From Candidatus Uabimicrobium helgolandensis (GTDB lineage Bacteria > Planctomycetota > Uabimicrobiia > Uabimicrobiales > Uabimicrobiaceae): 64,000 nt of DNA. The position numbers were made by a program, and so were the translations under genes. The notes beneath the pieces were generated by a model. It did not search any database and was not told the origin of the DNA. It saw only the letters and a program-made list of their open reading frames with translations. Numbering within the stretch: position 1 is the first letter of the stretch; every line of letters begins with the position of its first letter. The stretch lies in the NCBI RefSeq assembly GCF_041508025.1, contig NZ_CP165719.1, positions 736,023 to 800,022 of the forward strand. The letters are read 5' to 3'. Shown here in pieces: positions 12,145-38,013 of the stretch.

Positions 12145-12256
12145 AGTCGATAGAACAGAAACGTTCTATGCAAGTTTTATATTATAACCATACACGAAAT
12201 ACCAAATAATACCTACACATCCTAAGATCCTTCATTTTCTTAGAAATTTATAATGA

Positions 12257-14308: not shown

Positions 14309-15591
14309 ATTTTTTCCACGACAAAACTAGCCCCTTGTCCACCACCAACGCATAAAGTTGCCAAACCAACTGATTTGTCTTGTCGTTCGAGTTCGTTGAC
14401 AAGGTTCATTACGATTCTTACAGCAGATGCTCCTACAGGATGGCCAAGAGCAATTGCTCCACCATTTACATTGACAATTGTTTCATCTAGTTCTCCTAAA
14501 GCTGGACGTTTCAAATATTTTTCACTTAGTTTATTGCAAGAAAAAATGCGGAGGTTAGCTAAAACTTGGACAGCAAATGCTTCATTGATTTCGACAAGGT
14601 CCACATCTTTCATTGTCATTTTGGCTTTATCAAGAGCGAGTGGCGTGGCGTAAGCTGGTCCAAGCCCCATGTAGGAAGGGTCGAGTCCGGCGAATGCAAA
14701 CGAGCGTATTCGCGCAACAGGTTTGTATCCCATTTTTTTGGCATGTTCTTCTTCCATAACTAGTAACATCGCAGCGCCATCGGTAATTTGACTAGCATTT
14801 CCCGCGGTAACAGTTCCACTTTCTTTTTTGAATACTGTTTTTAATTTTGCTAATTTGTCGGTGTTTTCAAGTTCGCGAACACCATTGTCTTGAGAAATAT
14901 AACTATCTTCATCATCTTCATCAACGAGATAGGGCATAATTTCCGAAGTAAATTTGCCATCGTCGATCGCTTTTTTTGCGCGTTGGTGACTACGTAAAGA
15001 AAAAAGGTCTTGTTCCTCGCGAGAAATCGAAAAATCATGAGCAAGTATTTCAGCAGTGTGTCCCATTTCTAGACCACATGAACGATCAGATAGTATCAAT
15101 TTTAAACCAATCACTGGGCGATAATAATTCATTTTAAACTTTGCTAGCATTCGATATTGTTGCCATTTTCCTCGACAACGCATAAATTTTTGTAGCCAAT
15201 TTCGTGCTCCGGCATTCCACATTAGAGGAATTTGTGACATATTTTCTGCCCCACCGACAATAAAGGTGTTACCCATATCGGCTTGAATTTTTTGGTAAGC
15301 ATAAGCAATGGCTTCCATACCGCTGGCGCAGTTTCTTTGCACTGTTACTGCAGGAATACGATGAGGTAAATCAGCAAGGAGTGCTATATGGCGCGCTAGA
15401 TTAGCCGCTTCTGGAGGTTGGGCCACATTGCCTATAATAACTTCGTCGATATTTTGTGTATCTAGCTCACTTCGTTTTACCAGTTCTTTTACAACTGTCG
15501 CCCCCAAGTCATATGCTGGGATATTCTTAAATTCACTATTTATTTTTAAAAACGGTGTACGCAAACTTCTGACAATTACAACATTTTTCAT
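14305..15591 (-). CDS. Acetyl-CoA C-acyltransferase (thiolase)
   Basis: The thiolase active-site regions NRNCASGMEAI, NVNGGAIALGHPVGASAVRIV and GLATLCVGGGQG are present. The start was chosen at ATG 15591 (MKNVVIV) with AGGAAA upstream, rather than the longer ORF start at 15666. Confidence 0.85.
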   Translation of the reverse strand: MKNVVIVRSLRTPFLKINSEFKNIPAYDLGATVVKELVKRSELDTQNIDEVIIGNVAQPPEAANLARHIALLADLPHRIPAVTVQRNCASGMEAIAYAYQKIQADMGNTFIVGGAENMSQIPLMWNAGARNWLQKFMRCRGKWQQYRMLAKFKMNYYRPVIGLKLILSDRSCGLEMGHTAEILAHDFSISREEQDLFSLRSHQRAKKAIDDGKFTSEIMPYLVDEDDEDSYISQDNGVRELENTDKLAKLKTVFKKESGTVTAGNASQITDGAAMLLVMEEEHAKKMGYKPVARIRSFAFAGLDPSYMGLGPAYATPLALDKAKMTMKDVDLVEINEAFAVQVLANLRIFSCNKLSEKYLKRPALGELDETIVNVNGGAIALGHPVGASAVRIVMNLVNELERQDKSVGLATLCVGGGQGASFVVEKI

Positions 15592-23175: not shown

Positions 23176-24036
23176 ATGATGAAGATAGTCATTTTTATAT
23201 GTATATTATTTGCAAGTTGTTCACATAAATTTTACAAACCATATGTAGGCCCATATGCCGAAAATCCAGAATTTGTAGAATCTGTAACATTCCAAACGGA
23301 AGATAATCACCAATTGAAAGGTTTTTTACTAAAATCTCAAAAACCATCCAAAGGTATTGTTATCCACTTTCATGGTAACACAGGAAATGCACAAACATAC
23401 TTTATTTTTGTTGAATGGCTAATTGCTAGAGGTTACGACGTTTTTACATTTGACTATCGTGGTTATGGAGAATCACAAGGATCTCCAAGTCGTTCAGGAT
23501 TAGTGAAGGACAGTCGCGCAGCCATTAAGTACATAACTGACCAAAGAAAATGGGATAATATCTATCTTTTTGGCCAAAGTTTGGGTGGAAACCAAGCTAT
23601 CGCCGTAGTCGATGATAGTAATCGTCACTTTATCGATGGCATGATTATAGATAGTACTTTTTATTCTTACGCTTCGGTTGCGAATTACCATGTAGGAGAT
23701 TCATCTCTTTTTTATCCTTTTACTTGGATGCTAGTAGGTGGTAACAGTTATAGCGCTGCTGATTATGTCAAATCTCTACATGTACCGATCATGTTTATAC
23801 ATGGTGATAAAGACGAAATGGTTCCGATTTCTCATAGTTATCAACTATTCCAAGAATCAAGTTTTCCTAAATCATTCATAGGTGCAGTAAATTGTGGGCA
23901 TGTTGAAGCTTTAGCACGAGAACCAATCAGAGATGCCATTGTACAATTTTTAGAATCAAATTCTTTAGAATTTCAGTACATTAGAGAATCAACTGATCCC
24001 GAATATAAAAAACCTCCGAGCGAAAATCAAAATTAA
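23176..24036 (+). CDS. Alpha/beta-fold hydrolase lipoprotein
   Basis: GAGGGA lies 4 nt before ATG 23176. The signal/lipobox is ILFASCS. HGNTGN and the nucleophile elbow GQSLGG (GxSxG) are present, with a downstream D…H. Confidence 0.75.
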   Translation: MMKIVIFICILFASCSHKFYKPYVGPYAENPEFVESVTFQTEDNHQLKGFLLKSQKPSKGIVIHFHGNTGNAQTYFIFVEWLIARGYDVFTFDYRGYGESQGSPSRSGLVKDSRAAIKYITDQRKWDNIYLFGQSLGGNQAIAVVDDSNRHFIDGMIIDSTFYSYASVANYHVGDSSLFYPFTWMLVGGNSYSAADYVKSLHVPIMFIHGDKDEMVPISHSYQLFQESSFPKSFIGAVNCGHVEALAREPIRDAIVQFLESNSLEFQYIRESTDPEYKKPPSENQN

Positions 24037-24042
24037 AAGAGG

Positions 24043-24960
24043 TTACAACGTACAACAAAAATGTTCTAAGTATTTTTTTTGTTGCTCTTGGGATAGAGTA
24101 TGCCAACAGTCGCTTAACCAACTCAACAAATATAAACATGCTATAGTAATAAATTCATTGAGCATACGATGTTCTTGTTTTGAAATAGGGGCGATTTTTT
24201 GATAGTTTTCAAGGTAATTTTTGGCTTTGTGTGGACATAAACAATGCATTTTCCAGCAACTGCAGAAATAAAAAATAGCAAGTGCAATGTCAAAGATACG
24301 ATAGGTGTAAAAAATCCAATCGAAATCTAAAATCGCTACCGCTTTTTGTTGGTGAAACATAATGTTTTCTAAGTGGTAGTCACCGTGAATCATTACTTTT
24401 GGTAAGTTTGTAATTTGGGGAATAAAAGCAATACTCTTGTTGATGTTTTTCTCGATACATTGGTTATAAGAACCAAAAATTTGCTGTTGGTTGTTTTTTG
24501 CACGCAAGTTTTCCAGAAATGCTTTTATTGATATATTTTTTTGATGTGGTGGTTGCCAAGAGAAGATTGCACGATGATATGAAGCTTGTAGTTGCGCTGC
24601 ACTTTGTAAATAAATGGTATCACAGTTTGCGTCCCAATCGCCTACTATTTCATAGTCTAAAAAACCAAAAAGTGCACCATAGCGTTCACTATAGTGCACA
24701 TATGTTTTTTTGGTTTTCGTGAAAAGTAACTGTGGTGAAGTTTTGAACCTCTGTTTTTGTAAATAGCAAAGCAAATCGTGCTCGATAAGGATATCTTGTT
24801 CGCAATTATTCTTATATAAACGAAAAAAGTAGCGGTTATTATTTATAGTTACAATGTAACTATCATTTACCATTCCACCTAAACAGACACTTATATTGTT
24901 GATTTTACCTAGCGAATAGTGGCCTTCGATAAGCTCGATAATTTTGCGTTTGTTAGTCAC
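24043..24960 (-). CDS. Phosphotransferase enzyme family (APH/ChoK-like small-molecule kinase)
   Basis: The catalytic loop MIHGDYHLENIMF (HGDxxxxN) and the ILDFDW (DFD) motif are present. Confidence 0.7.
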   Translation of the reverse strand: MTNKRKIIELIEGHYSLGKINNISVCLGGMVNDSYIVTINNNRYFFRLYKNNCEQDILIEHDLLCYLQKQRFKTSPQLLFTKTKKTYVHYSERYGALFGFLDYEIVGDWDANCDTIYLQSAAQLQASYHRAIFSWQPPHQKNISIKAFLENLRAKNNQQQIFGSYNQCIEKNINKSIAFIPQITNLPKVMIHGDYHLENIMFHQQKAVAILDFDWIFYTYRIFDIALAIFYFCSCWKMHCLCPHKAKNYLENYQKIAPISKQEHRMLNEFITIACLYLLSWLSDCWHTLSQEQQKKYLEHFCCTL

Positions 24961-24976
24961 TTATTAATTATTTGCC

Positions 24977-25354
24977 TTAAAATTGATCTAATGAATAGTC
25001 ATCGTCAATTGGATTTTCATCCAGATTATATTTACCAATTACGTTGAATTTTAGTTGCGGTACTTTGCGACGGTTGATCGAAGAAGCGATTTCCGACAAT
25101 AGTATATTCATATTAAGCTGTAAGCGTTCTAAAATTTCAGCGGATGATGATGGTAAAGAGTTTGGCATAACAGTTACTAATAAACGTGAACTATTTGGTG
25201 AAGGGATCACCGAGTCTACATATAAATCACGTAAAATATCATCATCACACTCTCCAGCAAGTGCATAATTGAGAGCTTTTGCTATTTGGCCACATAGGCG
25301 CAAATCCTTGTAACTTTTTCCTGTGCTGCGGCGCCTCGGTTTTTTACGACTCAT
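24977..25354 (-). CDS. Small basic protein, tentatively RbfA-like (ribosome-binding factor A family)
   Basis: 125 aa. By eye it aligns with RbfA blocks (DLYVDSVIPSPNSSRLLVTV ~ V.V…DL..AKVYV; RRKVPQLKFNV ~ R.R.VPEL.F). The call is weak. Confidence 0.35.
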   Translation of the reverse strand: MSRKKPRRRSTGKSYKDLRLCGQIAKALNYALAGECDDDILRDLYVDSVIPSPNSSRLLVTVMPNSLPSSSAEILERLQLNMNILLSEIASSINRRKVPQLKFNVIGKYNLDENPIDDDYSLDQF

Positions 25355-25438
25355 GTTTAATTTCCTTATTTAACGAATGCAGTATATTTCAACTACACTC
25401 CAAATAACCGACGCAAAGTTTCTCAAATTTTTGCTCGG

Positions 25439-26074
25439 TCACCTACTTAAATTATAATAATGAAGCATTATATCTCCTGCTTCCCTTGTTGATCTTCCAA
25501 AGCTAATAATGCCATCTTCGTGTCCTCCCATAGAAAATATTTTTAATTTAGCCACATCTGTACGATTAAATAATCTTTTTACTTCATTTGCCATAGCCAC
25601 TGTACCGTAAGGAATATCGGGGTTAGTAACTGGTATTCCTAAAGCTTTGGCATTTTTCCAGATCTCTGGACTATGAGTGTGAAAAACATAGCGAATATTG
25701 GTATCGGCATCGTAGATCGCTCCATGCGTGAGTGATTCAGATGATGGCTTTACAGGACCTTCTGCAACTATAAGGTTTTCTTTGATATTATATTCTAATA
25801 CGGTTGTGTAGTCATGTGTAGTTAATTGTCGTTTTAAACCTGTTTGTGTTCCGGTAATAAAAAAACTTCTTTTTCCACACGGCTGAAAAAAAGGCGGACA
25901 ACGTTTACTAACATTTCCAAAACCAGCACCATCATAACGCAGAGGATCTTGACCTATAATTTTATATGTATATAGTATATCGCGCCATTTGTCTAAACAC
26001 TCAATATTTTTTTGATGAACTGCTGGATAAGGAAAAAAGCGCAGTTGAAATTTTATGACACCCTCTTGTTCCAT
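25439..26074 (-). CDS. Class II aldolase/adducin family protein
   Basis: SSESLTHGAIY and HTHSPE (metal-binding His) are present. The ATG at 26074 with AAGGTGGA upstream was preferred over 26107. Confidence 0.7.
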   Translation of the reverse strand: MEQEGVIKFQLRFFPYPAVHQKNIECLDKWRDILYTYKIIGQDPLRYDGAGFGNVSKRCPPFFQPCGKRSFFITGTQTGLKRQLTTHDYTTVLEYNIKENLIVAEGPVKPSSESLTHGAIYDADTNIRYVFHTHSPEIWKNAKALGIPVTNPDIPYGTVAMANEVKRLFNRTDVAKLKIFSMGGHEDGIISFGRSTREAGDIMLHYYNLSR

Positions 26075-26078
26075 ATCT

Positions 26079-28262
26079 TTAATCCACCTTAAAATAATTA
26101 TGAACACCTTGTTGTAGTAGCTGCATATCGCCAGGAATCGTAAAGAAATAATACCCGTGTTTTTGTTTTTGTAAAGCCGTTTCTAGATTGGCCGCATAGC
26201 TTCCAAGAGGAATGTTGTATTTGCGCGCAGTGGTTTCTATTTTTTGTATAGCTGCTTTTAATTCAGGAGAGTCGATAACAACTCCCATTGAAACTGATAA
26301 ATCGAAAGGACCTACATGCCACAAGTCTACTCCAGGCACTTGCGCTATTTGCTCTAAATTTTCTACAGCTTCAGGTGTTTCGATCATTAGTATTGTTAGT
26401 ACAACATTATTTGCTTCAGCGAAATACTCTCTAAACTTACCTAAATAACGATTTCCTCTTTCAGCACCAACAGGCCTTTTCCCAATAGGAGGGTATTTTG
26501 TGGCATCGACAGCTTTTTTAGCATCGTCAGCGTTTTTTATACTAGGAATAATAATTCCTTTTGCTCCAGTGCCAATATATTTTTTTATGTGCGAAATATC
26601 ATTTGTCGGAATTCGTACAATGGGTACCGTTTTTTCATTTTCAGCTACACGCACGAGGTTTTGTACATCTTTTACGCTCATTTCAGTGTGCTCTGCTTCG
26701 ATCCAAAAGAAATCAAGTTGATTTCCCATTGCCATATTTTCAATTATTTTAGCGTCGGCAATAGTTACAAATCCACCAAACGTAGGTTTTTTTAACAGAC
26801 TAATTTTTTCTTTTACTTTATTGTTCATCGTTGTTGATTTTAGCTCTTTTACAATACAACGTGTGATACGTGGATATTGTTCTCCTGTTTCAACGATAAC
26901 AAAATTTTGCTCTGCTTTAAATTTCATTTCTTCATTATCTTTTGTGGTACCTTGCCATTCCAATTTTACTTGCACAACATAATTACCATCGCGATCAATT
27001 TCGACTTTTACACTTTCGATATTGTGCGTCGCTTTTTTTATTTGTGATGCTACTAGTGAGTGCCATTTTTGAAAATCAAACACTGAATACAAATTTACAT
27101 CTGGAAATTGCATGTATAAACTTGTTTGTGATAATAACGGTAGAAAGTTTTTTAAATCGGCGTTATTGTCTAATAGTGAAAACCAGTGATAAATAAAACT
27201 AATGATTTGATTTTTATTGCGTAGTTCTGGACTTATAGGTATTTTGAAAATTCGGTACGGATTTGTGGGACTGCTGCCTAAATGTATTTGTGCTGTAGTA
27301 AAATAAAGTTGTCCATTACTTATAGAAAAACTATCGGGCCAAGAGATACTTTCGTGTTGTACCAAGTATTGCACTCGTAAACCAGGTGTTAAGCGCAAAA
27401 TAGCGTTGTTTTCCAAGCTTGAAATATATAAATTACCATGAGGGTCGAAAATCAAACCATCAGCGGCACCCGTTTTTCCTAAGACTTGTACGTTTTTATG
27501 TATAGTTTCTTGTGCAATATTTTGGTCGCGTAAAACCTGTGTACGTATGCGGTATAGACTTTTTGCCGTTAAAGCTTGGTAATATAAATACTCATTGTTC
27601 GGACTTAGGGCAATGCCATCTGAGTGAACCTGTGGCGCTTTACCACCGCGCAGCCATTTCTTACCTTCGATTTCTAATACCACGTCTTCAGCATTTGTAG
27701 AAGCGTGGTTATCTAGTAATCTACGCGAAATTCCCGTTTTTAAATCGAGAACAACAATTGCACCATCACCCGAGTCTGTCATATAAGCAAATTGGTTAAT
27801 CGTGTCCACACGCACGTCATTTAAGTAGCTATTTTTTAAAACAATACTTTCGTTGAAAGTATATATTTTCAGTATTTCATTGCTACTCAGATCTATTTTG
27901 AGGAGCTTGGGTCCACCTTTTATTACACCAGAAAATTTTGGATTTGCAGGATCAAGTACCCACAAAAAATTCTGATTATCTATATACACACTTTGGACAC
28001 AGACAAAGCGATTTCGCGGAGATAAATCAAGAGTCCACCCATTCCAGTTTTTATTAGGAAAAGGTATGACACGTCCATTTTTTTGCAGTTCTCCAACAGA
28101 AATAGGTGTACGTGCTCCCCATCTTGGGTAATTAACAAATGTGCGACCACTTTGTGAAACAGCGATTCCCGTCCACTGTCTTTTGGAGTTAGCCACTTCT
28201 TCGAGAATTTTTTCTTGGGCAACACAAGCGATAAACAGTAATACAAATATAAATTTTTTCAT
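26079..28262 (-). CDS. Secreted three-domain fusion: six-bladed beta-propeller (MRJP/yellow- or SMP-30-like), a central NTF2/SnoaL-like segment, and a C-terminal HpcH/HpaI-family aldolase
   Basis: The signal peptide is MKKFIFVLLFIACVAQ. FLWVLDPANP is MRJP-like. The C-terminal 250 aa match HpcH/HpaI aldolase blocks (FFWIEAEHTE…, LTILMIETPEAVENL, DLWHVGPFDLS). The start was chosen at 28262 with AAGGAA upstream. Confidence 0.65.
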   Translation of the reverse strand: MKKFIFVLLFIACVAQEKILEEVANSKRQWTGIAVSQSGRTFVNYPRWGARTPISVGELQKNGRVIPFPNKNWNGWTLDLSPRNRFVCVQSVYIDNQNFLWVLDPANPKFSGVIKGGPKLLKIDLSSNEILKIYTFNESIVLKNSYLNDVRVDTINQFAYMTDSGDGAIVVLDLKTGISRRLLDNHASTNAEDVVLEIEGKKWLRGGKAPQVHSDGIALSPNNEYLYYQALTAKSLYRIRTQVLRDQNIAQETIHKNVQVLGKTGAADGLIFDPHGNLYISSLENNAILRLTPGLRVQYLVQHESISWPDSFSISNGQLYFTTAQIHLGSSPTNPYRIFKIPISPELRNKNQIISFIYHWFSLLDNNADLKNFLPLLSQTSLYMQFPDVNLYSVFDFQKWHSLVASQIKKATHNIESVKVEIDRDGNYVVQVKLEWQGTTKDNEEMKFKAEQNFVIVETGEQYPRITRCIVKELKSTTMNNKVKEKISLLKKPTFGGFVTIADAKIIENMAMGNQLDFFWIEAEHTEMSVKDVQNLVRVAENEKTVPIVRIPTNDISHIKKYIGTGAKGIIIPSIKNADDAKKAVDATKYPPIGKRPVGAERGNRYLGKFREYFAEANNVVLTILMIETPEAVENLEQIAQVPGVDLWHVGPFDLSVSMGVVIDSPELKAAIQKIETTARKYNIPLGSYAANLETALQKQKHGYYFFTIPGDMQLLQQGVHNYFKVD

Positions 28263-28272
28263 AGAGTATTCC

Positions 28273-29031
28273 TTAATTTTTACGAGCAATAAAAATCATT
28301 TTTTGACTAGTATGTTCGAATGGTCTTTCATCGTACCAACCAAAAACATTTTCCACTGTGAAATTTGCTTGCTCTAATAATAGCTCCATCTCATAGCGAT
28401 GCACATAACGCAATATTTCGGTATACGGATAACGTTTTACTTCGCCGTCACAGCAAAGTTCTATGATATTGTTAGCAATAAGAACTTGTCGTGCGCTATC
28501 ATAGCGTCCACTGCACCAATGGTTCAATGTTGTATTTTCTTTGTAGTTTTCAATACACATAAGCAAAGATAGTTGCCCTTGGCACTGGGGTTGTTTTAGC
28601 AAATAAAATGGATGGAATACATCAATAACAAGTTTTGCGCCGGAAGTAAGATGCTTTGATATGTTTTGCAAACATATTTTTTGATGGGTAATAGAGGGGA
28701 GTAGTAAAAAAGAATTTGCTGCAATAAAAACACCCGATATTTTTCGAGGCAAGTTAAATTTTGTCATGTCGTCTTTTTGCCATTGTATGTATTTTTGTAA
28801 ATTTAAAGGGCATTTCTCTTGTCCCTTATCCAACATTGCCTGACTGATATCTAGAGCAATCATATGATGTTTTTTGGCAGCAAGTTCAATCGCTAAACGT
28901 CCCGTACCAGTGGCAAGCTCCAATAATGGATCTTCACTAGGAGTAAATACCCTTTCGTACAGAGGGAGATCATGAAGAAAACTAACGCAGACATCGTAGA
29001 AATCAACTTCATTATGACTGGGAGCACCCAA
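28273..29031 (-). CDS. Class I SAM-dependent methyltransferase
   Basis: Motif I is LELATGTGRLAIELA and motif post-I is MIALDIS. The apparent start is TTG at 29031 with AAAGG upstream. Confidence 0.7.
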   Translation of the reverse strand: MGAPSHNEVDFYDVCVSFLHDLPLYERVFTPSEDPLLELATGTGRLAIELAAKKHHMIALDISQAMLDKGQEKCPLNLQKYIQWQKDDMTKFNLPRKISGVFIAANSFLLLPSITHQKICLQNISKHLTSGAKLVIDVFHPFYLLKQPQCQGQLSLLMCIENYKENTTLNHWCSGRYDSARQVLIANNIIELCCDGEVKRYPYTEILRYVHRYEMELLLEQANFTVENVFGWYDERPFEHTSQKMIFIARKN

Positions 29032-29109
29032 AATAGACCTTTCTTTATTCTGTTATGTTTCAATGGCGTAATCTTAAATTATGTAAAAAATATGATCTTT
29101 ATATTTGTA

Positions 29110-29358
29110 GGGCGTGTCATCATTCAAAATATTGTGTGTTTTTTCGAGCCCGAGCCCGTTTGCGAAACTTTCACTAACAATTTATCAAAGAAGCAAAGTT
29201 TCTTTTTCCATCGCAAAAAACTAGTATTGAACCAATAAATCACTTTCTGTCGCTCTCAAAAAGTTTTCGGACGCGGGCTCGCAAACGGGCTCAATACTAC
29301 TGGCGTATCATTAAATGAATCCGTTATATTTTTATCTGTATTGAATGATGACAGGCCC
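29110..29358 (-). mobile_element. MITE copy A (inverted orientation, about 249 bp, internal 12-bp deletion)
   Basis: Its terminal inverted repeats are gggcgtgtcatcattcaa…ttgaatgatgacaggccc. The interior is the reverse complement of copies B and C. Confidence 0.85.
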
Positions 29359-29445
29359 TAAATGTTTGCGATGTAACAAAATAACTTTTTTAGTTGGGGT
29401 AACCTCATAATTACACAATTATGAGATCGTACCCATTTAGATAAA

Positions 29446-30039
29446 CTACGCCATATAAATAGTAAGACCAATAGAAACAAATACAGAGCTAACTAAACCA
29501 ACAACTGCCATAACACTTGAAGAGTTTAATTTTCTTTGTGTGCTTCTCTCTAAGTTTTCGCATACTTGTGGAAGAATTTTGTAATTTTGATACAAAATAA
29601 TGGGGGATATCACAAAGGAAAGTCCGTAAACCAGAGACATATAGCCTAATTTGTAATTTTTTTCGGCTACCGCTTTAATAGAGTCATAGTCGCGCAGTAA
29701 ATCTTCGTCTTTTATTTGCTTGCCGTTACTTTCTTTTAAGAGATTAGTGTATCTTTTGTAAACAGAGCATTCTTTGCCTTCATACACTAATTGTAAACAA
29801 ATAGGACACTCTTTTTCTGTTATTTCTTGTTTTTCCAGCTCTATTGCTTCAAGCGAAGGATCAGCTTCTGGCAAAGGTAAAGCAGTTAGTTTCGTAGGCT
29901 GAGGAACTCCAAGAGTTAATGTAGCTAGGCACCTTGGACATTTGATTTTTTTCCCATAAAAATTATCAGGGACACTCTTTCTGTAAGAGCAGAATGGACA
30001 ATCAAAAGGAATAGACATTGCGATTACCTTTATATTCAT
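29446..30039 (-). CDS. Double zinc-ribbon membrane protein (hypothetical)
   Basis: CPFC…CPRC and CPIC…C pairs are present, with two C-terminal TM helices. Confidence 0.55.
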   Translation of the reverse strand: MNIKVIAMSIPFDCPFCSYRKSVPDNFYGKKIKCPRCLATLTLGVPQPTKLTALPLPEADPSLEAIELEKQEITEKECPICLQLVYEGKECSVYKRYTNLLKESNGKQIKDEDLLRDYDSIKAVAEKNYKLGYMSLVYGLSFVISPIILYQNYKILPQVCENLERSTQRKLNSSSVMAVVGLVSSVFVSIGLTIYMA

Positions 30040-30138
30040 TTAAATTTTTTATACATAAGGCATGCAAAAGAAATCTCTTTTTACATGCTTAAAACGATAA
30101 AAATAGAGTCTAGGCTCCATTGCGAATGTTATAAAATG

Positions 30139-30786
30139 CTAGGTAAACAGTTCATCTTGTTCGCCAGCTAATTTTCTTTTTACTGTCGACCAACTATGCC
30201 GAATATAATCAGGAAGAGGTGGTTTGCTTTGACATAGTTTTTGAATAAATTTTTGGGTTTTGGCGTCGGAAGGATAACCAGAACCAAAATCTCCAAATTT
30301 TTTGCGTAGTTTTTCTATTTCATCGTCTCTTTTTACTTTTGCGAGAATACTAGCTGCAGCAACAACAGGATAATTATCATCTGCATGATTTTCAGCAACA
30401 ATACATATTTGACGTTCGTTTAGTAATTTCTCAAGTTGTTCTTTAAATTTATGACCTCCTCTTCCAGGAGCATCAATGTAAACAACATCAGGATACCTTC
30501 TTTTTATAAGTTCTACAGCGACTTCTGCTTCTAAAACATTTAAACGTTTTTTTAAACAGTACTCATCTATTTTAGGAGGGGGAACTACGATAATTTCTGT
30601 TCCAAGTGCTATATCTTTAATTTCATCTACCAAAGCTTCGCGCTTTTTTTGAGTAAGCTTTTTGGAATCTTTGACACCGCATTTTAAAAGTTTATCCCAA
30701 CTTTTTTGTGTAACCATTACTGCGGCCAGTACCATGGGACCTATAACACACCCGCGGCCAGCTTCATCTATACCTAAAATTTTCAT
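30139..30786 (-). CDS. rnhB: Ribonuclease HII
   Basis: The N-terminal MKILGIDEAGRGCVIGPMV, including the catalytic DEAGRG motif, matches RNase HII. Confidence 0.9.
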   Translation of the reverse strand: MKILGIDEAGRGCVIGPMVLAAVMVTQKSWDKLLKCGVKDSKKLTQKKREALVDEIKDIALGTEIIVVPPPKIDEYCLKKRLNVLEAEVAVELIKRRYPDVVYIDAPGRGGHKFKEQLEKLLNERQICIVAENHADDNYPVVAAASILAKVKRDDEIEKLRKKFGDFGSGYPSDAKTQKFIQKLCQSKPPLPDYIRHSWSTVKRKLAGEQDELFT

Positions 30787-31108
30787 TGTAATATGGCGAG
30801 GATGTTCCCGAAGGGAATGCCAATATGTTCTTCATCGTAAATGTTTGCCCCGCACTTCCTTTCTGCATCTTAGAACTTTTGATTGACAAAACATCACTTT
30901 TTGCGTCGATACGTCCTAATAAGTATATAAAAAAGTTTCTTAGTATTCAACATGGTTTCCCACTGTTGCTCACAACTTCAGTATCACAGGCTTAAAACGA
31001 GAAACTAGATTTGTAATTATTTATCGTTTTATCGAAAATTAACTATCGTTCCGACGATTTTACTTTGTAATTTGTTACTAGACATACCGTTTTAGATCTT
31101 TTTCATAA

Positions 31109-32893
31109 TTATTCATCTTCAGAATTTCCGATGCGAATGCCGTAGCTTTGAAGCACAGATATAATACTCGCTATAATTCCTGGCAAAGAGGATCCATTTC
31201 CATCTCCGCTAATATTGACACTATGTTTTGGATGCGGAAGGGATTTGGCAATATCCGGCATCATTGCTATCGCTTGTGATTGAATTTGTTGTTGAGAAAG
31301 CATGTTCGCCGTTTTTTGCCTTTTTTCATCGAAATCGAGCTCTATATTCGTTTGTTTGTTATTTAAGTCATTTCTCTTCTGTTTACATTGCAATTCTGTT
31401 TCGAGTGCAAGGTCTTCGAAATGCGCTTCTAGTTCTTGCTTTCGCTTACGAAGTTTTGCGTCGCTTTCCATTTCAAGTTCTTGTATTTGACGCTTGGCTT
31501 TGATTTTATCTTCTTTTAGCTGATATGAATGAATTTCTAATTCCATATTTTGTTGGCGTTGAGCAAACTCTTTTTCCAATTCGATTGTTTTTATTTTGTG
31601 ATTCAATTGCAATTGTTTTTCGCGAATAACTTGTTGTGCATCTTGTTGTGTTTGTTCTTCTTCAAGCTCTCTTTTATTCACCGTTGATTGGTTTTCAATT
31701 TCTGCTAAGCGCGCGGCAGCCATTTGGCTTGAACGAAATGGTTTCTGTAAATTTTGCCATAAATTTGCCGATGATACGATGGCTTCTTTTATTTGCACTG
31801 TGATAATCTTAATTCCCAAACCACTGTCATCACCGAAACCTTCAGCCACTTCTTTCAAACGTTTTGTCAATTCTTTGATAATCGGTTGTTTGTCGGATAA
31901 AACTTCGTTAATCGACATAGTAGCGACTTTGTCTTTAATAGCCGCTTCTGCTTGCTCTCGTAACTGTAAGGTTACAACGCGCATCGGATCTTCAGCATCA
32001 GAAAAATCGAGACGACGATAGGCCGTTTCTACATCATCAATAATCCACTGAACATAGGCTTGAATTAAAATACCTTGTAATTCTTTGCAAATGGTATTTG
32101 CACTGATAAGAATTGTTTGCATTGAGCTAGGAACAACTAAAAAAGAATCGCTGCGCGGATTATAGCGAAACGACATTCCGAGACCTATGTGTAAAGGTTT
32201 TTCATGCCCTCTACGTGTATGAATAACGTACATGTTGGGAGGTACAACTACAGATTTAAACAATCGCCCTGTTACTTTTACTCCGAGAGAACTAACTATT
32301 TCTTTTTCTTCTTCTTCTATTATTTTGGTGTTGTTATCTTTGCGCGGAGCAGCGGGTTTCGATTTTTTGTGCTTGCGGTTTACACGTAATTGTTTCTCCA
32401 GATTATCTACCTCGGCTATAGCTTGCTGCATATAAATATTACCTTTGGCGTCCATAGATTCCTCCTGATTTTGTGGATTGTTTTCAAAATTTGTAATACG
32501 AACAGGTATAACATTACTTGGTTTATTTGTCATGTTTATTTCGTTTGAAAAATTCCCTCCAGATTCATCGTTTGAATCGTCAATATCACTGTCGCAATCG
32601 TTAATACCACTATCGGAATCGTTGACATCACTGTCGGAATCGTCAAAGCTGCTGTCAAAATCGTCGTCGTTTAAGTTGCTTGCGTTTTTCTTAACAATAA
32701 AACAATCTTGTTCCTCATCAAATATGCTGGCGCTAGGTAAATCGCTAAATATATCTTCTGCAGGCATATTACTTTGAGGTACAATGTCTAGAAAAGGGGC
32801 ATCTTGTTCTTGTTCTTCTTCGTCGCTAAATATGTCAGGCTCTTCATTTTCAAACAAATTTTGGGGCGACATACGTTGTTGTCTTCTTCTCAA
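31109..32893 (-). CDS. SPFH/flotillin-like protein with poly-acidic N-terminal extension and long C-terminal coiled coil
   Basis: The central SPFH-like region is NMYVIHTRRGH…IQAYVQWIIDD…ITVQIKEAIV. The N-terminal 150 aa are D/S/E-rich (DDSDSDVNDSDSGINDCDSDIDDSNDE), encoded by an about 21-nt DNA microsatellite at about 32560-32680. A K/E/Q-rich coiled coil follows. Confidence 0.6.
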   Translation of the reverse strand: MRRRQQRMSPQNLFENEEPDIFSDEEEQEQDAPFLDIVPQSNMPAEDIFSDLPSASIFDEEQDCFIVKKNASNLNDDDFDSSFDDSDSDVNDSDSGINDCDSDIDDSNDESGGNFSNEINMTNKPSNVIPVRITNFENNPQNQEESMDAKGNIYMQQAIAEVDNLEKQLRVNRKHKKSKPAAPRKDNNTKIIEEEEKEIVSSLGVKVTGRLFKSVVVPPNMYVIHTRRGHEKPLHIGLGMSFRYNPRSDSFLVVPSSMQTILISANTICKELQGILIQAYVQWIIDDVETAYRRLDFSDAEDPMRVVTLQLREQAEAAIKDKVATMSINEVLSDKQPIIKELTKRLKEVAEGFGDDSGLGIKIITVQIKEAIVSSANLWQNLQKPFRSSQMAAARLAEIENQSTVNKRELEEEQTQQDAQQVIREKQLQLNHKIKTIELEKEFAQRQQNMELEIHSYQLKEDKIKAKRQIQELEMESDAKLRKRKQELEAHFEDLALETELQCKQKRNDLNNKQTNIELDFDEKRQKTANMLSQQQIQSQAIAMMPDIAKSLPHPKHSVNISGDGNGSSLPGIIASIISVLQSYGIRIGNSEDE

Positions 32894-33004
32894 AACATGT
32901 CCTTTATCGTTTACGTTACTATATAGAGTATAGCACTACATTGATTCTTGCAGTACGGTTGACTTGGAATCGTCGGTGTTTTTTATTGCAAGATAATATA
33001 TATT

Positions 33005-34213
33005 ATGTTATGTTCACCAATTATGAAAACAAAAAAACAATACACTGTGTTATGTAAAATTATATGTGTAATTTCTTGTTATGCAATCGCATTTTTTATA
33101 ACCGATCCAACTCTTTCGAAGTGGAACAATCAACAAGTTATTACAACGACAAACCACGAAACAGAGCAACCCGCATTTTCTACGACATATATCGCTCCTG
33201 AATTTCCACATGAAAAAAATCATGTATCTTCTATTACTCCGTTAGATGAAAATCGCATAATGTGTGTGTGGTATGCAGGATCAAAAGAAGGAGCTCCTGA
33301 TGTTTCTATTTATGCGGCTATTCGTGAAAAAAACAAATGGTCTTCTCCACAACGCCTTGTCGATTTAAATATTAGTTCAAAAGAACTAAATCGTTACGTT
33401 CGCAAGGTAGGCAATGCAGTTGTTTTTAAAGACGCAGAAGATACTTTATGGCTTTTCTATTGTAGTGTTAGTCTTGGTGGTTGGGCAATGGCAAGAACTA
33501 ATTACCGTTACTCGCGCGATAACGGAAAAACTTGGAGTCGAAGTAAGGAACTCTTTTTAAATCCATTTTTGAGTTTAAGCAATAATGTAAAAAATAAGCC
33601 TCTTGTATTTAAAAACGGTAGCTTTTTATTACCTCTCTACCAAGAATTTATTAATAAATATGGCATTGCGTTATGGGGAAAATGGGAAGACAATGAACTC
33701 AAATACATAGTAAAGCGTATTGGAAATCATCAGCGAACTTTACAACCAACACTTGTTCGTAGTGAAGATGCTGGTCTAATAGCTTTTTTTCGTAATCGTG
33801 ATAAAGGTTCGATGTTGCAATCAAAAAGTATAAATTCTGGTATAAATTGGTCACCAGTAAAAAAGGCAAATTTACCCAATCCTAATTCTGGTTTTGATAT
33901 GTTGCATATTCGCGAAAAGGAATTTATTGGTGTTATTAACTATTCTCCTACAGAGCGCGATAATCTTGTGCTTGTTTATACCAATAATAGCGGTAAAAAA
34001 TGGCATATTTTACACTATCTGGAAACAGCTATCCCTGTCGAACAAGATGAGCGCTTTAAGCTTATCGGCAAAAAATCACATTACTATCAATATCCAAGCA
34101 TAATAAAACACAATGGAAACTATCATCTCTCTTATACTTGCTTCGAAAAAATAAAACATACTACGTTTAATGAGGTATGGTTACGTGAAAAAATAAAAAA
34201 GGTGAACAAATGA
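33005..34213 (+). CDS. BNR/Asp-box repeat protein (sialidase/exo-alpha-sialidase-like glycosyl hydrolase fold)
   Basis: Asp-box motifs SRDNGKTWS, SEDAGLIAF, NSGINWSP and NNSGKKWH are present, with an N-terminal hydrophobic signal. The start is uncertain (33005 or 33023). Confidence 0.65.
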   Translation: MLCSPIMKTKKQYTVLCKIICVISCYAIAFFITDPTLSKWNNQQVITTTNHETEQPAFSTTYIAPEFPHEKNHVSSITPLDENRIMCVWYAGSKEGAPDVSIYAAIREKNKWSSPQRLVDLNISSKELNRYVRKVGNAVVFKDAEDTLWLFYCSVSLGGWAMARTNYRYSRDNGKTWSRSKELFLNPFLSLSNNVKNKPLVFKNGSFLLPLYQEFINKYGIALWGKWEDNELKYIVKRIGNHQRTLQPTLVRSEDAGLIAFFRNRDKGSMLQSKSINSGINWSPVKKANLPNPNSGFDMLHIREKEFIGVINYSPTERDNLVLVYTNNSGKKWHILHYLETAIPVEQDERFKLIGKKSHYYQYPSIIKHNGNYHLSYTCFEKIKHTTFNEVWLREKIKKVNK

Positions 34214-34797
34214 TGCATGGATTAATAGAGTACGCAACTATCTTTCTATTTGTGTTGTGGATAAGTAATAAGATTTTTACAAATTTGTTTATTGCAATTT
34301 TAATTGGTGCTTGTAGCCTGTATATTCCCCTAGGAGAACTTACTCTAGCGCAATATATATTGTCATATCATCCAAGCTTTTCTTTTTCCAGCTGTGCACT
34401 ATGTGGCCTTTTAGTATATCACCAATCTTTGGATGAACTACTCCTTACAAAAAAAGATATGAAGTACTTTTTGTGGGGAAATGTTGTACTTGGAACAACT
34501 TTATATTTGAGTTCTTTTGCAATCATACCTTTTGATATTTATTTTTATGGGTTTTTCTTCTCTGAGTGGTTTGTCGTTTTTCTTGTTATAAATTTATTTT
34601 GCATTTTACTTAAATATAATACTATTTTTTACATTTTGTTGGGCTGTATATTCTCTTTTCTTATGCACTTTGGTTATTCTCCCAACTATTTTGACTATCT
34701 CATAGATCCTCTATTATTTTTGTGTTGTACAGGAATTTTAATAAAAAACAATGTTGTCGAGTGGTTTCGTAAAAAAAATCGATCCACTTCTAGTTAG
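34210..34797 (+). CDS. Polytopic membrane protein (hypothetical)
   Basis: About 6 hydrophobic helices. An ATGA overlap with the upstream BNR gene stop suggests translational coupling. Confidence 0.5.
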   Translation: MMHGLIEYATIFLFVLWISNKIFTNLFIAILIGACSLYIPLGELTLAQYILSYHPSFSFSSCALCGLLVYHQSLDELLLTKKDMKYFLWGNVVLGTTLYLSSFAIIPFDIYFYGFFFSEWFVVFLVINLFCILLKYNTIFYILLGCIFSFLMHFGYSPNYFDYLIDPLLFLCCTGILIKNNVVEWFRKKNRSTSS

Positions 34798-34808
34798 AAA
34801 GTTTAGTC

Positions 34809-35483
34809 ATGTTTCGCGAAAAAAACTCGTGGATTGAATACCTTGTAGTATTTACAGTATTTACATTCGTTATTATCGGAATTTTCTTATCTATTTATAA
34901 TTTAGATTACTACCGCAATTCTTACGCAGTAGAAGATGGACTCATTGAATGGCTTACAGTTGTTTCATTGTTATTTGCTAGCATGATTTGTGTAGTAAGA
35001 GCATTCAAAATCAGACTAAAGCGCGGTTCTCTTTTTCTTGCGTGTTTATGTTTCTCGAGTTTAGTATTTATTTTTGGTGCAGGAGAAGAAATTTCTTGGG
35101 GGCAAAGAATATTCGATATCCAAAGCTCTGAATTTTTTCAACAGCACAATGCACAAAAAGAAACAAATTTTCACAATTTAAAAATTGGCGGAGTTAAAAT
35201 TAATAAACTACTCTTTGGAACTATCCTATCTATTGTCGTTGTTATATACTTAACATTGTTCCCTATAGCTTATAGACGCACTGATTGGGGAAAGAAAATA
35301 ATAGATATGTTTGCTATTCCTCTTCCCAAACTACTCTATATAATGAGTTATGCAGCTTTGTTCTTGATACTTCTCACCATACCTACAAAAAACCGCGGTG
35401 AATTGTTAGAGTTTGGAGGAGCAACACTGTTTGCTTTTATTGTATTATTTCCAGCGAACAAAGAATTGTTTGAAAGTACCTAA
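34809..35483 (+). CDS. Polytopic membrane protein (hypothetical)
   Basis: About 5 hydrophobic helices, 11 nt after the previous gene. Confidence 0.5.
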   Translation: MFREKNSWIEYLVVFTVFTFVIIGIFLSIYNLDYYRNSYAVEDGLIEWLTVVSLLFASMICVVRAFKIRLKRGSLFLACLCFSSLVFIFGAGEEISWGQRIFDIQSSEFFQQHNAQKETNFHNLKIGGVKINKLLFGTILSIVVVIYLTLFPIAYRRTDWGKKIIDMFAIPLPKLLYIMSYAALFLILLTIPTKNRGELLEFGGATLFAFIVLFPANKELFEST

Positions 35484-35499
35484 TTAGTTTCGGAGTGTA

Positions 35500-35766
35500 G
35501 GGCGTGTCATCATTCAATACAGATAAAAATATAACGGATTCATTTAATGATACGCCAGTAGTATTGAGCCCGAGCCCGTTTGCGAGCCCGCGCCCGAAAA
35601 CTTTTTGAGAGCGACAGAAAGTGATTTATTGGTTCAATACTAGTTTTTTGCGATGGAAAAAGAAACTTTGCTTCTTTGATAAATTGTTAGTGAAAGTTTC
35701 GGAAACGGACTCACAAATGGGCTCGGGCTCGAAAAAACACACAATATTTTGAATGATGACACGCCC
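35500..35766 (+). mobile_element. MITE copy B (267 bp)
   Basis: The 19-bp TIR is gggcgtgtcatcattcaat/…attttgaatgatgacacgccc. Internal 25-bp inverted repeats gagcccgagcccgtttgcgagcccg / cgggctcgcaaatgggctcgggctc are present. It is about 98% identical to copy C. Confidence 0.9.
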
Positions 35767-36020
35767 TGGTTAAAAATAATTTACTGATTTTATCTGTCGC
35801 GACTATGTACGTCCAGATAACCAGTTCATTAGTAAAATTTCTATGTAAAATTTGGTGTATTGTTTTTCGCTACACTCTCAATACATACTCTATATAAAAT
35901 CTTTAACGTTCTAAGTGGTTACTTTTAACTTCTTTAAAATATTTTTCAAAAAAAATAGCGTTTTAAAATATTGATACAAAACGTCTTAGGTAAAACTTTC
36001 TTATTTTTTATTTTTTTGTA

Positions 36021-36048
36021 TTGATTTTTAAATTACTTCATCTATAAT
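36021..36048 (+). promoter_or_regulatory. Putative sigma70-type promoter for tRNA-Pro (TTGATT-16 nt-TATAAT)
   Basis: The -35 box is at 36021-26 and the -10 box at 36043-48, placing the predicted TSS about at the mature tRNA 5' end (36056). Confidence 0.5.
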
Positions 36049-36055
36049 TACGGGC

Positions 36056-36130
<75 letters not shown>

Positions 36131-36137
36131 TACTATA

Positions 36138-37616
36138 ATGAAACATTTCTATAAAAACACAAAAAACTTCCGCAAAAACACAGAAGCATTATCCTCATAC
36201 ATTATACATCAACGTTGGTATCGAGGGAAATCACAATCCAACCACAACATTTCTATCGATGATGTTATTGAAATTGCAAATGAACAATATATTTTTATTG
36301 TAACGGCAAACAATTCTATAAAACATAAATACATTCTTTTTCTAATTCTCTCTGAACAAAAACAACAAAATTCTATGTTTAATTTATATATAGATAATAA
36401 ACAATTATTTGTTTATGATGGATGTCAAAATGAGGAATATTGTAATAATCTGTGGAACATAATACAATTTCCAGATACATATCGTAATTTGAGTAGCTTT
36501 ATTATTCATCAAAATTTAGATCTCTCAATTAACAACTCAAAACTGCAAGATATTGAGCAGAGCAATACGAACATCATCTATGATGATCGCTTGTTACTCA
36601 AAATATTTAGGCAACCTCAACCTGGCACCAATCCTGATTTAGAAATAAATGTCTTTTTAAGCGAACAAGGTTTTTGTCACGTACCAAAAACAGTCGCTGC
36701 TATTCGTTATACATCAGACAGTGGTAAAATTTTCGATATTGCTATTGTCCAAGAATTAGTGAAAAACGCTAAAGATTGCTGGGAGCATACCGTCGATTTA
36801 GCAAGTAAGTTTTTAGTCCAAAATCGCGAAGAAAATTTAGCACAACGTTCGATTTTTAGCAGTTTAAAAACAATACCAAGCACAATGGAGTTATCCGCTA
36901 ATTTTGCCAAATTACTAGGGCAACGAACAGCCGAACTTCACCTAGCACTTACTAATACTAATGACAATGCTGATTTCACGCCATCAAAAATCGATAATCT
37001 TTATTTACTAAATCTATATAAAGGTTTTTGTGGTATATTGCAAGAGGTTGTCGATACATTAGAGAATAGTGATATGAGGACTAATCACAATGTCATTAAA
37101 TTTCTTGAGGCAAAGAATTATCTACAAACGCACTTTGAATCGTTGACAACGATAAAAACAGAGGGATTCCGTATTCGCTGCCATGGAGACTATCATCTTG
37201 GACAAATTTTAAAGTTAGAAACAGACATTGTTATTCTAGACTTTGAAGGCGAACCACTTCGTCCCATAGAAGAAAGGCGCCAAAAACAATCTCCTTTTAA
37301 AGATGTAGCAGGAATGATTCGTTCTTTTAACTATGCTGGATTTAAAGCCGCCATGGATTTAGGAACTACAGATATCTCTCGTGCAAACTATTGGGGGAAT
37401 ATTGTTTCCACAACATTTTTAAGTGAATACCTGAAAGTCGCTGAAAGTGGAAAGTTTTTATCGCAGAATAAACAACAACAAAGAGTTCTACTACAATTAT
37501 TCTTGTTTGATAAAGCTCTTTATGAATTGAAATATGAATTGAACAATCGCCCTGACTGGGTTCATATACCACTATCTGGTATAATCTCATTATTAAATGA
37601 TGTCATCGAAAAATAA
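36138..37616 (+). CDS. Maltokinase-like (Mak/Pep2 family) APH-fold kinase
   Basis: The C-terminal catalytic motifs RCHGDYHLGQIL and ILDFEGEP match maltokinase. The ATG lies 7 nt after the tRNA 3' end, so the longer ORF start at 36072 overlaps the tRNA and was rejected. Confidence 0.65.
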   Translation: MKHFYKNTKNFRKNTEALSSYIIHQRWYRGKSQSNHNISIDDVIEIANEQYIFIVTANNSIKHKYILFLILSEQKQQNSMFNLYIDNKQLFVYDGCQNEEYCNNLWNIIQFPDTYRNLSSFIIHQNLDLSINNSKLQDIEQSNTNIIYDDRLLLKIFRQPQPGTNPDLEINVFLSEQGFCHVPKTVAAIRYTSDSGKIFDIAIVQELVKNAKDCWEHTVDLASKFLVQNREENLAQRSIFSSLKTIPSTMELSANFAKLLGQRTAELHLALTNTNDNADFTPSKIDNLYLLNLYKGFCGILQEVVDTLENSDMRTNHNVIKFLEAKNYLQTHFESLTTIKTEGFRIRCHGDYHLGQILKLETDIVILDFEGEPLRPIEERRQKQSPFKDVAGMIRSFNYAGFKAAMDLGTTDISRANYWGNIVSTTFLSEYLKVAESGKFLSQNKQQQRVLLQLFLFDKALYELKYELNNRPDWVHIPLSGIISLLNDVIEK

Positions 37617-37748
37617 TTAGTTTTACCTAGCTCAACAAACAATTGAGTTCTCAGAAGCTTTACTTCAAGTATTCGTATATTAAAGACCTCGACTTCAGTA
37701 CCTAAATACATTCAGTGGTACAATTTTTGGTTGAATGCCCTTAAATTA

Positions 37749-38013
37749 GGGCGTGTCATCATTCAATACAGATAAAAATATAACGGATTCATTTAATGAT
37801 ACGCCAGTAGTATTGAGCCCGAGCCCGTTTGCGAGCCCGCGCCCGAAAACTTTTTGAGAGCGACAGAAAGTGATTTATTGGTTCAATACTAGTTTTTTGC
37901 GATGGAAAAAGAAACTTTGCTTCTTTGATAAATTGTTAGTGAAAGTTTCGGAAACGGGCTCGCAAATGGGCTCGGGCTCGAAAACACACAATATTTTGAA
38001 TGATGACACGCCC
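37749..38013 (+). mobile_element. MITE copy C (265 bp)
   Basis: It has the same TIRs and interior as copy B and lies in direct orientation relative to B. Confidence 0.9.

Follow-up and report, generated by a model that had tools for sequence, protein, structure and literature searches.

We have examined five closely spaced genes on the minus strand of a 64,000-nucleotide stretch of DNA from Candidatus Uabimicrobium helgolandensis (contig NZ_CP165719.1, positions 736,023 to 800,022), which is called the window here. They encode a class I S-adenosylmethionine (SAM)-dependent methyltransferase, a fusion of an MRJP/yellow-type propeller with an HpcH/HpaI-type aldolase, a class II aldolase/adducin-fold protein, an RbfA-like protein and an APH-fold kinase. 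An earlier note, made from the letters of the window, had described them as a compact operon that may encode an uncharacterised sugar or 2-keto-3-deoxy-acid pathway. This pathway reading proved to be weakly supported. We consider it fairly likely that the five genes are the distal end of a long co-directional string of mixed functions and not a dedicated five-step pathway. The source was evident from the fusion protein: a search of 5.8 billion proteins returned an entry of Candidatus Uabimicrobium sp. HlEnr_7, encoded on a 9.32-Mb contig, with 100% identity. HlEnr_7 is Ca. U. helgolandensis, a planctomycete which takes up prey bacteria by phagocytosis-like engulfment and whose 9.3-Mb genome (CP165719) has 4,319 genes in common with Ca. 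U. amorphum (PMC11481906).

Reading of the window sequence bore out the five open reading frames, their strand and their coordinates:

28273 to 29031, minus strand: methyltransferase (class I SAM-dependent), 252 amino acids, TTG start; Pfam Methyltransf_25, 42.8 bits
26079 to 28262, minus strand: fusion protein, 727 amino acids, ATG start; MRJP, 101.9 bits, and HpcH_HpaI, 83.8 bits
25439 to 26074, minus strand: class II aldolase/adducin-fold protein, 211 amino acids, ATG start; Pfam Aldolase_II, 45.2 bits
24977 to 25354, minus strand: RbfA-like protein, 125 amino acids; Pfam RBFA, 25.2 bits (gathering score 34.7)
24043 to 24960, minus strand: APH-fold kinase, 305 amino acids, GTG start; Pfam APH, 61.8 bits

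The spacers of 10, 4, 84 and 16 bp were obtained again when recomputed with NCBI-consistent starts, that is with the ATG starts of the fusion (26079-28262) and of the class II aldolase (25439-26074). The G+C content is about 35% over the whole window and the five-gene cluster shows no compositional break. The sequences of the methyltransferase, class II aldolase, RbfA-like protein and kinase have exact counterparts in NCBI, under the names class I SAM-dependent methyltransferase, class II aldolase/adducin family protein, hypothetical protein and phosphotransferase, respectively. The domain calls of the earlier note were upheld against Pfam, the RbfA-like call only at the level of the family profile. 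None of the five proteins reached an NCBIfam equivalog cutoff; the nearest models were those of a daptide-type methyltransferase, HpaI/GarL, AraD/MtnB, RbfA and type II homoserine kinase.

Gene order within and outside the genus

Within the genus, the methyltransferase, fusion, aldolase and RbfA-like genes stay side by side solely inside a larger collinear block, at least 11 genes long, that only three closely related genomes carry. Positions 24977-37616 of the window are collinear with positions 5-11100 of the corresponding locus of Ca. U. amorphum (AP019860; L002), the 11 genes sharing 52-89% protein identity. Both in this locus and in that of the third genome (L001), the genes for a Band-7 protein, RNase HII, a 190-aa zinc-ribbon protein, the methyltransferase (252 aa), the fusion (727 aa), the aldolase (210 aa) and the RbfA-like protein follow one another in this order and are all co-directional. 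Besides the RNase HII and Band-7 genes, the block contains a BNR/sialidase-like gene. The synteny breaks exactly between rbfA and the kinase gene: the third genome, too, has the four genes but no kinase gene beside them, and the U. amorphum genes past the break are absent from the 64-kb window. The kinase gene stands outside the conserved block, as a neighbour specific to this species. Upstream of the five genes, the same-strand run extends through the zinc-ribbon, RNase HII and Band-7 genes, so the short spacers and the shared direction are not special at this locus. Since the string continues upstream and the kinase lies beyond the break, the limits of the "five genes" appear to be set arbitrarily within a longer string of mixed genes.

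The search for the partner genes outside the genus covered 80 loci of aldolase orthologues, fetched together with flanks of up to 10 kb, and two more (82 loci, 1.04 Mb). In none of the 82 did a homologue of the methyltransferase, the MRJP, NTF2-like or HpcH domain, the RbfA-like protein or the kinase turn up, either with tblastn (E up to 1e-3) or with phmmer run against the six-frame translations (E up to 0.01). Even a 69%-identical relative of the aldolase follows an AllG-family gene, with none of the partner genes there. A neighbourhood conserved beyond the genus, which the earlier note had proposed to look for, was thus not found. The note had also named the outcomes that would speak against its pathway, namely housekeeping families and no conserved synteny in other genomes; this is largely what was found, in the RbfA gene, in the 82 loci and in the place of the kinase beyond the break.

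The upstream end of the five genes is marked by an inserted element:

29108 to 29360, no strand assigned: MITE-like element (miniature inverted-repeat transposable element) with 20-nt terminal inverted repeats, between the zinc-ribbon and methyltransferase genes; found by inverted-repeat search

The element had been noticed before and is real, its inverted repeats lying at 29108-29127 and 29341-29360. Three copies of about 250-270 bp with the repeat TAGGGCGTGTCATCATTCAA are present in the window (29108-29360, 35498-35768 and 37747-38015). The element is absent from the orthologous site in the third genome (32-bp spacer) and in U. amorphum (91-bp spacer), and its insertion widens the gap between the zinc-ribbon and methyltransferase genes to 414 bp in U. 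helgolandensis. A weak promoter-like match (ATGACA-17-GATCAT) faces from the end of the element toward the methyltransferase gene. Apart from this match, consensus-based scans placed no promoter-like or terminator-like site in the spacers of the five genes. The counts were not above background (28 promoter-like sites compared with 23.5 in shuffled sequences, 3 terminator-like sites compared with 4.0), and the scans therefore say nothing either way on operon structure.

Two further observations concern the block and its surroundings. The zinc-ribbon protein (29446-30039, minus strand, 197 aa) has CxxC motifs and a hydrophobic C-terminus and is 86% identical between Uabimicrobium species; no Pfam family matched it above threshold. 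Past the break in the relatives (11676-15015 of the U. amorphum locus and 5650-7598 of the third one) lies a convergent cluster of the isonitrile-synthase type, with DIT1_PvcA, TauD and flavin adenine dinucleotide (FAD) monooxygenase genes. A link of the five genes to this cluster was rejected, the U. amorphum neighbours being absent from the window.

The 727-aa fusion protein

The fusion gene encodes four segments, all on the minus strand:

28224 to 28262, minus strand: signal peptide with the lipobox-like end MKKFIFVLLFIAC, Cys13; from the sequence pattern and its conservation in orthologues
27228 to 28205, minus strand: MRJP/yellow-type six-bladed beta-propeller, residues about 20-345; from Pfam, PDB, AlphaFold2 (AF2) and Foldseek
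26823 to 27227, minus strand: NTF2-like middle domain (SnoaL/scytalone-dehydratase-like fold), residues about 346-480; from AF2 and Foldseek
26079 to 26819, minus strand: HpcH/HpaI class II (metal-dependent) pyruvate aldolase domain, residues about 482-727, including the stop codon; from Pfam and the alignment with 4b5s

The N-terminus follows the pattern MKKF..LLF[IV][AS]C, in which the Cys and the hydrophobic core are kept in three orthologues, and signal-like segments open other MRJP homologues as well. The earlier note had called the protein secreted. A conserved lipoprotein-type signal agrees with this, the support being a pattern in the sequence, and the protein is probably exported, likely as a lipoprotein.

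The propeller matched the Pfam MRJP family well above the gathering score (101.9 bits compared with 19.8 for PF03022), its sequence match in PDB was Anabaena Ava_4197 (2qe8, E 2e-32) and it was modelled by AF2 with a predicted local distance difference test (pLDDT) score above 90 across the domain. Foldseek matched the model with 2qe8 (TMt 0.83), the Aedes dopachrome conversion enzyme and MRJP1, the SMP-30/Drp35-type lactonases being more distant. The identity with the insect yellow, MRJP and dopachrome conversion proteins is about 20%. Between the propeller and the aldolase domain lies the NTF2-like domain, which the earlier note had overlooked. Pfam gave no family match for it (best hit NTF2, E 0.049, 14.5 bits compared with 21). 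When modelled alone, it reached an AF2 pLDDT of 81.7, and Foldseek returned TM scores of 0.75-0.81 with 3b8l and 3ef8, putative scytalone dehydratase, NTF2 and SnoaL-like cyclases being among the matches. The matches with NTF2 itself (1oun, TMt 0.75) and with the SnoaL-like XimE (TMt 0.71) agree with the alpha+beta cone fold. Homologous modules flank MRJP propellers elsewhere, following the propeller in P0010 and preceding it in P0004. The propeller may be a lactonase-like or substrate-binding module, and the NTF2-like domain may provide an accessory pocket for binding or catalysis.

The C-terminal domain scored 83.8 bits against a gathering score of 25 for HpcH_HpaI (PF03328) and aligned with E. 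coli HpaI, the 4-hydroxy-2-oxoheptanedioate aldolase (4b5s, E 3e-29). In HpaI, His45 and Arg70 are catalytic and Glu149 and Asp175 bind the metal; in the alignment with 4b5s the equivalents of all four are kept as H525, R550, E628 and D654, in the contexts EH, VR, E(T) and D(L), respectively. The domain is of full length like the HpaI, GarL, YfaU and RhmA aldolases and, since these catalytic and metal residues are kept, a divalent-metal-dependent retro-aldol reaction releasing pyruvate is expected. The domain would then be an active divalent-metal pyruvate aldolase, cleaving or making 4-hydroxy-2-oxo acids outside the cytoplasm, with 2-keto-3-deoxy sugar acids as an example of substrates. Assignment to a particular member of the family was not reached with the NCBIfam equivalogs (HpaI 127.1 compared with 368.8, GarL 119.3 compared with 393, rhamnonate aldolase RhmA 92.7 compared with 441). 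Known HpcH/HpaI aldolases assemble as hexamers. In contrast to HpaI, GarL and YfaU, whose known members are free-standing and cytoplasmic, the domain described here is C-terminal in a lipoprotein-like protein that is predicted to be exported, and the usual pathway partners of those systems are absent from the Uabimicrobium locus.

Among the 5.8 billion proteins, the combination of MRJP and HpcH occurred only in the cluster of the query (P0001) and in an 80%-identical cluster (P0002), and the propeller-NTF2-HpcH architecture is, judged from these matches, found in Uabimicrobium only. Other bacterial MRJP propellers (P0003-P0120) are fused to DJ-1/PfpI, glyoxalase/VOC, peroxiredoxin, ankyrin and SnoaL domains, and further ones to heavy-metal-associated domains, alpha/beta hydrolases, peptidase C69 or type IX secretion system (T9SS) sorting domains. 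Several of these partners are detoxification-type domains. Since the propellers are fused to so many unrelated domains, the MRJP propeller may be regarded as a promiscuous exported scaffold and the HpcH add-on as a genus-specific variant of it. The fusion shares the six-bladed propeller with bacterial MRJP/yellow proteins such as Ava_4197 (named L-dopachrome tautomerase-related protein); like many of them it has a C-terminal add-on domain and, as many of them appear to, an N-terminal signal. It differs from them in the nature of the add-on, NTF2-like plus HpcH, which among the matches is confined to Uabimicrobium. No methyltransferase or aldolase genes lie near the genes of the closest MRJP homologues (P0004 and P0010). 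Literature searches turned up no bacterial MRJP member with a demonstrated activity, dopachrome conversion or other.

A hint of the substrates comes from a Klebsiella pneumoniae plasmid (NZ_CP092401, 66971-85052), on which a free-standing MRJP gene (35% identical) adjoins a gene for an HpcH aldolase (32% identical). Their neighbours, with insertion sequence elements interspersed, encode an IlvD/EDD dehydratase, a frameshifted aldehyde dehydrogenase, two sugar transporters (one of them GRP) and a Gfo/Idh/MocA oxidoreductase. We read this gene set as one for non-phosphorylative oxidation of a sugar, the MRJP protein taking the position of the lactonase. Because this plasmid joins MRJP and HpcH to sugar-acid chemistry, we propose that the fusion handles 2-keto-3-deoxy sugar acids, which are plausible substrates of its HpcH domain. 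The likeness to Weimberg/Dahms-type and L-rhamnose LRA clusters, as exemplified by the plasmid, lies in MRJP and HpcH occurring together, beside a sugar dehydrogenase, a dehydratase and transporters. In Uabimicrobium, in contrast, the pair is fused and predicted to be exported and has no dehydrogenase, IlvD/EDD or enolase-type dehydratase or transporter alongside. The plasmid cluster may also offer a clue to what MRJP proteins do in bacteria.

The four other proteins

The methyltransferase is identical to WP_372368697.1 and 70% identical to its orthologues in U. amorphum and the third genome. It carries the SAM-binding motif I LELATGTG at residue 37, its best NCBIfam model is that of a daptide-type methyltransferase (71 bits compared with a cutoff of 175) and the nearest solved structures are 9sot and CcbJ. 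It is probably a cytoplasmic small-molecule (N-)methyltransferase. PADLOC returned only a generic methyltransferase-domain match (mad2, 33 bits) for this protein and nothing for the other four; on this result, an anti-phage defence reading was rejected.

The 211-aa protein matched Pfam Aldolase_II (PF00596) with 45.2 bits, compared with a gathering score of 22.2, and has no signal peptide. At E up to 1e-5 it has 788 homologues. They are about 55% identical across phyla (typically 50-57%) and come from Gammaproteobacteria, Chloroflexi, Rhodothermales and other groups, DPANN archaeal bins among them. Among 20 diverse homologues, N54, S56, E113, H132, H134, Y156 and H185 and a TGTQTG motif are invariant or nearly so. 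The zinc-binding His triad (H132, H134, H185), the acidic residue E113 of the SS(E/D) motif and the phosphate-binding N/S/G motifs are thus present, and they align with those of AraD and aq_1979. The PDB matches of the family profile were 2irp and AraD; the best match among solved structures, Aquifex aq_1979, is a protein which we take to be of the MtnB type. The scores with the equivalogs of AraD, MtnB, FucA-type and ribulose-1-phosphate aldolases were 16-28 bits, compared with cutoffs of 137-489. An extra conserved N-terminal segment, EGVIKF...WR, was observed in the subfamily, and the searches turned up no characterised member of it.

The genes that recur beside this aldolase are specific to lineages. 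CDGSH zinc-finger, YkuD and EpmC genes accompany it in Gammaproteobacteria, while the Chloroflexi loci have it between two FGGY kinases and Fe-ADH_2, with a 2-hydroxyacid dehydrogenase and a sugar ABC transporter nearby; FGGY kinase genes adjoin the orthologue in 11 Chloroflexi loci. An MtnA-type (IF-2B family) isomerase gene adjoins it in 4 of the 82 loci. Like FucA and RhaD, the protein has the GNxS, SSE, HxH and distal His motifs and the conserved Tyr, and its Chloroflexi orthologues stand beside FGGY kinases. Unlike FucA and RhaD, it approaches no NCBIfam equivalog and carries the additional N-terminal segment. The SSE and HxH motifs, the distal His and the Tyr, taken with the neighbouring FGGY genes, indicate that it is probably a FucA-like ketose-1-phosphate aldolase. 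As a cytoplasmic zinc-dependent enzyme acting on a phosphorylated ketose, it would have a role of its own.

The 125-aa protein scored below the curated cutoffs on its own (25.2 compared with 34.7 for PF02033, 18.1 compared with 51.15 for TIGR00082). The family tells more: an exhaustive HMMER search gave 1170 cluster representatives, Pfam RBFA was matched by 57 of 58 aligned members, and the significant PDB matches of the family profile (E up to 1.4e-4) were all RbfA chains with the whole KH-like domain aligned. A 54%-identical homologue (P0246) carries a recorded RBFA match and sits among unrelated genes. By these family-level matches, the protein is a divergent but genuine member of the RbfA family; the RbfA-like call of the earlier note was correct in this sense and improves on the NCBI name hypothetical protein. 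Like RbfA, the protein aligns over the whole KH-like domain with the Pfam and NCBIfam models. It differs from typical RbfA in belonging to a divergent subfamily with scores below the curated cutoffs and in not being encoded in a nusA-infB-rbfA context. Ten family members were looked up and two of them were named, one as ribosome-binding factor A (JGI) and one as from a Planctomycetaceae bin, and on the basis of these two the divergent RbfA is probably of a planctomycete type. Its function would be 30S ribosome maturation.

A further feature lies in the 84 bp that separate the aldolase gene from rbfA:

25375 to 25445, minus strand: two stable hairpins in the aldolase-rbfA spacer, the first overlapping the aldolase stop codon; from RNA folding

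The hairpins fold with -27.1 kcal/mol (z = -3.83; none of 200 shuffled sequences folded as well). They are not kept in U. amorphum or in the third genome and are specific to this species. Possibly, they are a processing or attenuating element. Rfam gave no match (E up to 1) over 23500-30200, and a riboswitch or leader RNA in the spacers was rejected on this result.

The kinase has an APH domain (61.8 bits compared with 23.2 for Pfam PF01636) with the catalytic motifs H192-G-D194-x4-N199 (HGDYHLEN from residue 192) and D212-F-D214. Its closest NCBIfam model is that of type II homoserine kinase, with 100.2 bits compared with a cutoff of 271; MtnK gave 17.1 compared with 275. A word-indexed search of the 5.8 billion proteins detected a single homologue, a 46%-identical protein of Ca. 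U. amorphum (P0244). The gene of this homologue is located about 27 kb from the collinear block, directly behind two large Ser/Thr protein kinase genes (17-bp spacer) and before an SASA-family gene. Judged from these matches, the kinase looks like a fast-evolving, genus-restricted protein. Both the kinase and the methyltransferase would be small-molecule enzymes that act independently of the aldolases.

Readings of the locus

The pathway of the earlier note would consist of one five-gene operon in which the kinase phosphorylates a sugar, the class II aldolase-fold enzyme cleaves or dehydrates the product in an MtnK/MtnB-like manner or as in the dihydroxyacetone phosphate (DHAP) shunt, and the HpcH domain and the methyltransferase act on related intermediates. 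Some of its parts stood: the genes share a strand and tight spacers with no terminator-like site inside, 2-keto-3-deoxy acids are plausible for the HpcH domain, and the catalytic motifs of the kinase are intact. The phosphate-binding and zinc sites of the class II aldolase are kept as well, which implies a need for a phosphorylated substrate. The pairing, on one strand, of genes for an APH-fold kinase and a class II aldolase-fold enzyme recalls methionine salvage by MtnK/MtnA/MtnB and the DHAP shunt, the best structure match aq_1979 is presumably of the MtnB type and the few orthologues adjoining an MtnA-type isomerase gene fit this scheme. The likeness did not extend to the equivalog level, however: MtnB gave 23.7 bits compared with 137, MtnK was likewise far under its cutoff, and the cluster contains no MtnA-type gene. 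The housekeeping gene rbfA lies between the aldolase and the kinase, the latter is missing from this position in both relatives and has its only homologue in another context, no APH-type kinase was found near any of the 82 aldolase orthologues, and export is predicted for the HpcH enzyme, the other proteins being cytoplasmic. We regard such a five-gene pathway as quite unlikely. A smaller unit of the methyltransferase, the exported fusion and the class II aldolase, with RbfA and the kinase as bystanders, is still unlikely but less so. It would convert 2-keto-3-deoxy acids of prey or polysaccharides to pyruvate and an aldose (for example 3-deoxy-D-manno-octulosonic acid (KDO) to D-arabinose), which would then be taken up, isomerised, phosphorylated and cleaved as ketose-1-phosphate by the FucA-like aldolase. 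The 10-bp and 4-bp spacers (the latter 1 bp in U. amorphum) are kept in three genomes, the active sites of both aldolases are intact, the collinear block also holds a BNR/sialidase-like gene and the Chloroflexi orthologues of the aldolase stand beside FGGY sugar kinases. YfaU and RhaD/FucA serve non-phosphorylative and phosphorylative routes, respectively, for the same deoxy-sugars, and the two aldolase families of this unit would thus represent both routes. Nevertheless, the three families co-occur nowhere outside the genus in the loci searched, the 69%-identical relative of the aldolase lacks both partners, and neither an isomerase nor an FGGY kinase nor a transporter is encoded in the string. 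The scheme leaves no role for the methyltransferase, and the conservation of the three genes is indistinguishable from the collinearity of the whole block.

The fusion could alternatively be a self-contained extracytoplasmic catabolic machine, for which a lactonase-like propeller, a dehydratase-like domain of the NTF2 fold and the HpcH aldolase would act one after another, from a lactone through the acid and the 2-keto-3-deoxy acid to pyruvate and aldehyde, or which would cleave prey-derived KDO-type acids in the periplasm or the prey compartment, the co-transcribed FucA-like aldolase consuming the sugar after uptake. We hold this to be very unlikely. Least probable among the readings considered is that the genes form a module which tailors an aromatic secondary metabolite derived from tyrosine. 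In it, the propeller, the SnoaL-like domain, the methyltransferase and the aldolase-fold enzymes would modify the product of the isonitrile synthase cluster. The block does abut PvcA-, TauD- and FAD-monooxygenase-type genes in U. amorphum and the third genome, an insect dopachrome conversion enzyme is among the relatives of the propeller, polyketide cyclases are among the matches of the NTF2-like domain and the methyltransferase resembles natural-product N-methyltransferases. The isonitrile genes, however, are convergent, lie past the synteny break with RbfA between the two gene sets, and are absent from the whole 64-kb window in which the four genes are retained, and MRJP propellers are fused to many domains unrelated to such chemistry.

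The distal end of a longer co-directional string of mixed functions is the reading we prefer, and several points weigh against it. Spacers of 10 and 1 bp in U. amorphum, compared with 10 and 4 bp here, are typical of translationally coupled, functionally related genes. Neither a terminator-like site nor a promoter-like site above background lies between the five genes, and co-transcription of all five is possible. With collinearity at the level of a genus and three close genomes, selection and shared ancestry are indistinguishable. A second, canonical rbfA may be present elsewhere in Uabimicrobium. Other points concern the fusion: its export was called by eye from a short signal with the Cys at position 13, the plasmid neighbourhood is a single example from which, together with family membership, the substrate assignments are drawn, and the AF2 model of the whole fusion gave a pLDDT of 30-77 for the HpcH domain. 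The domain was modelled poorly because the alignment is shallow, only two sequences covering it, and its assignment therefore rests on sequence.

If the five genes are indeed part of a mixed string, the locus warns against reading a pathway from closely spaced genes in a genome that has long co-directional strings. What is new here is a domain architecture within the promiscuous MRJP family, encoded beside ordinary genes. The fusion and the Klebsiella plasmid are among the few cases that tie a bacterial MRJP propeller to an enzyme of known chemistry. The subfamily of the 211-aa aldolase is large and highly conserved, with members from several bacterial phyla and from DPANN archaeal bins, and it merits biochemical assignment. 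An exported aldolase of the HpcH type would be unusual. To our knowledge, only two bacteria with phagocytosis-like feeding have been described, the host being one of them, and its extracytoplasmic enzymes bear on the digestion of prey.

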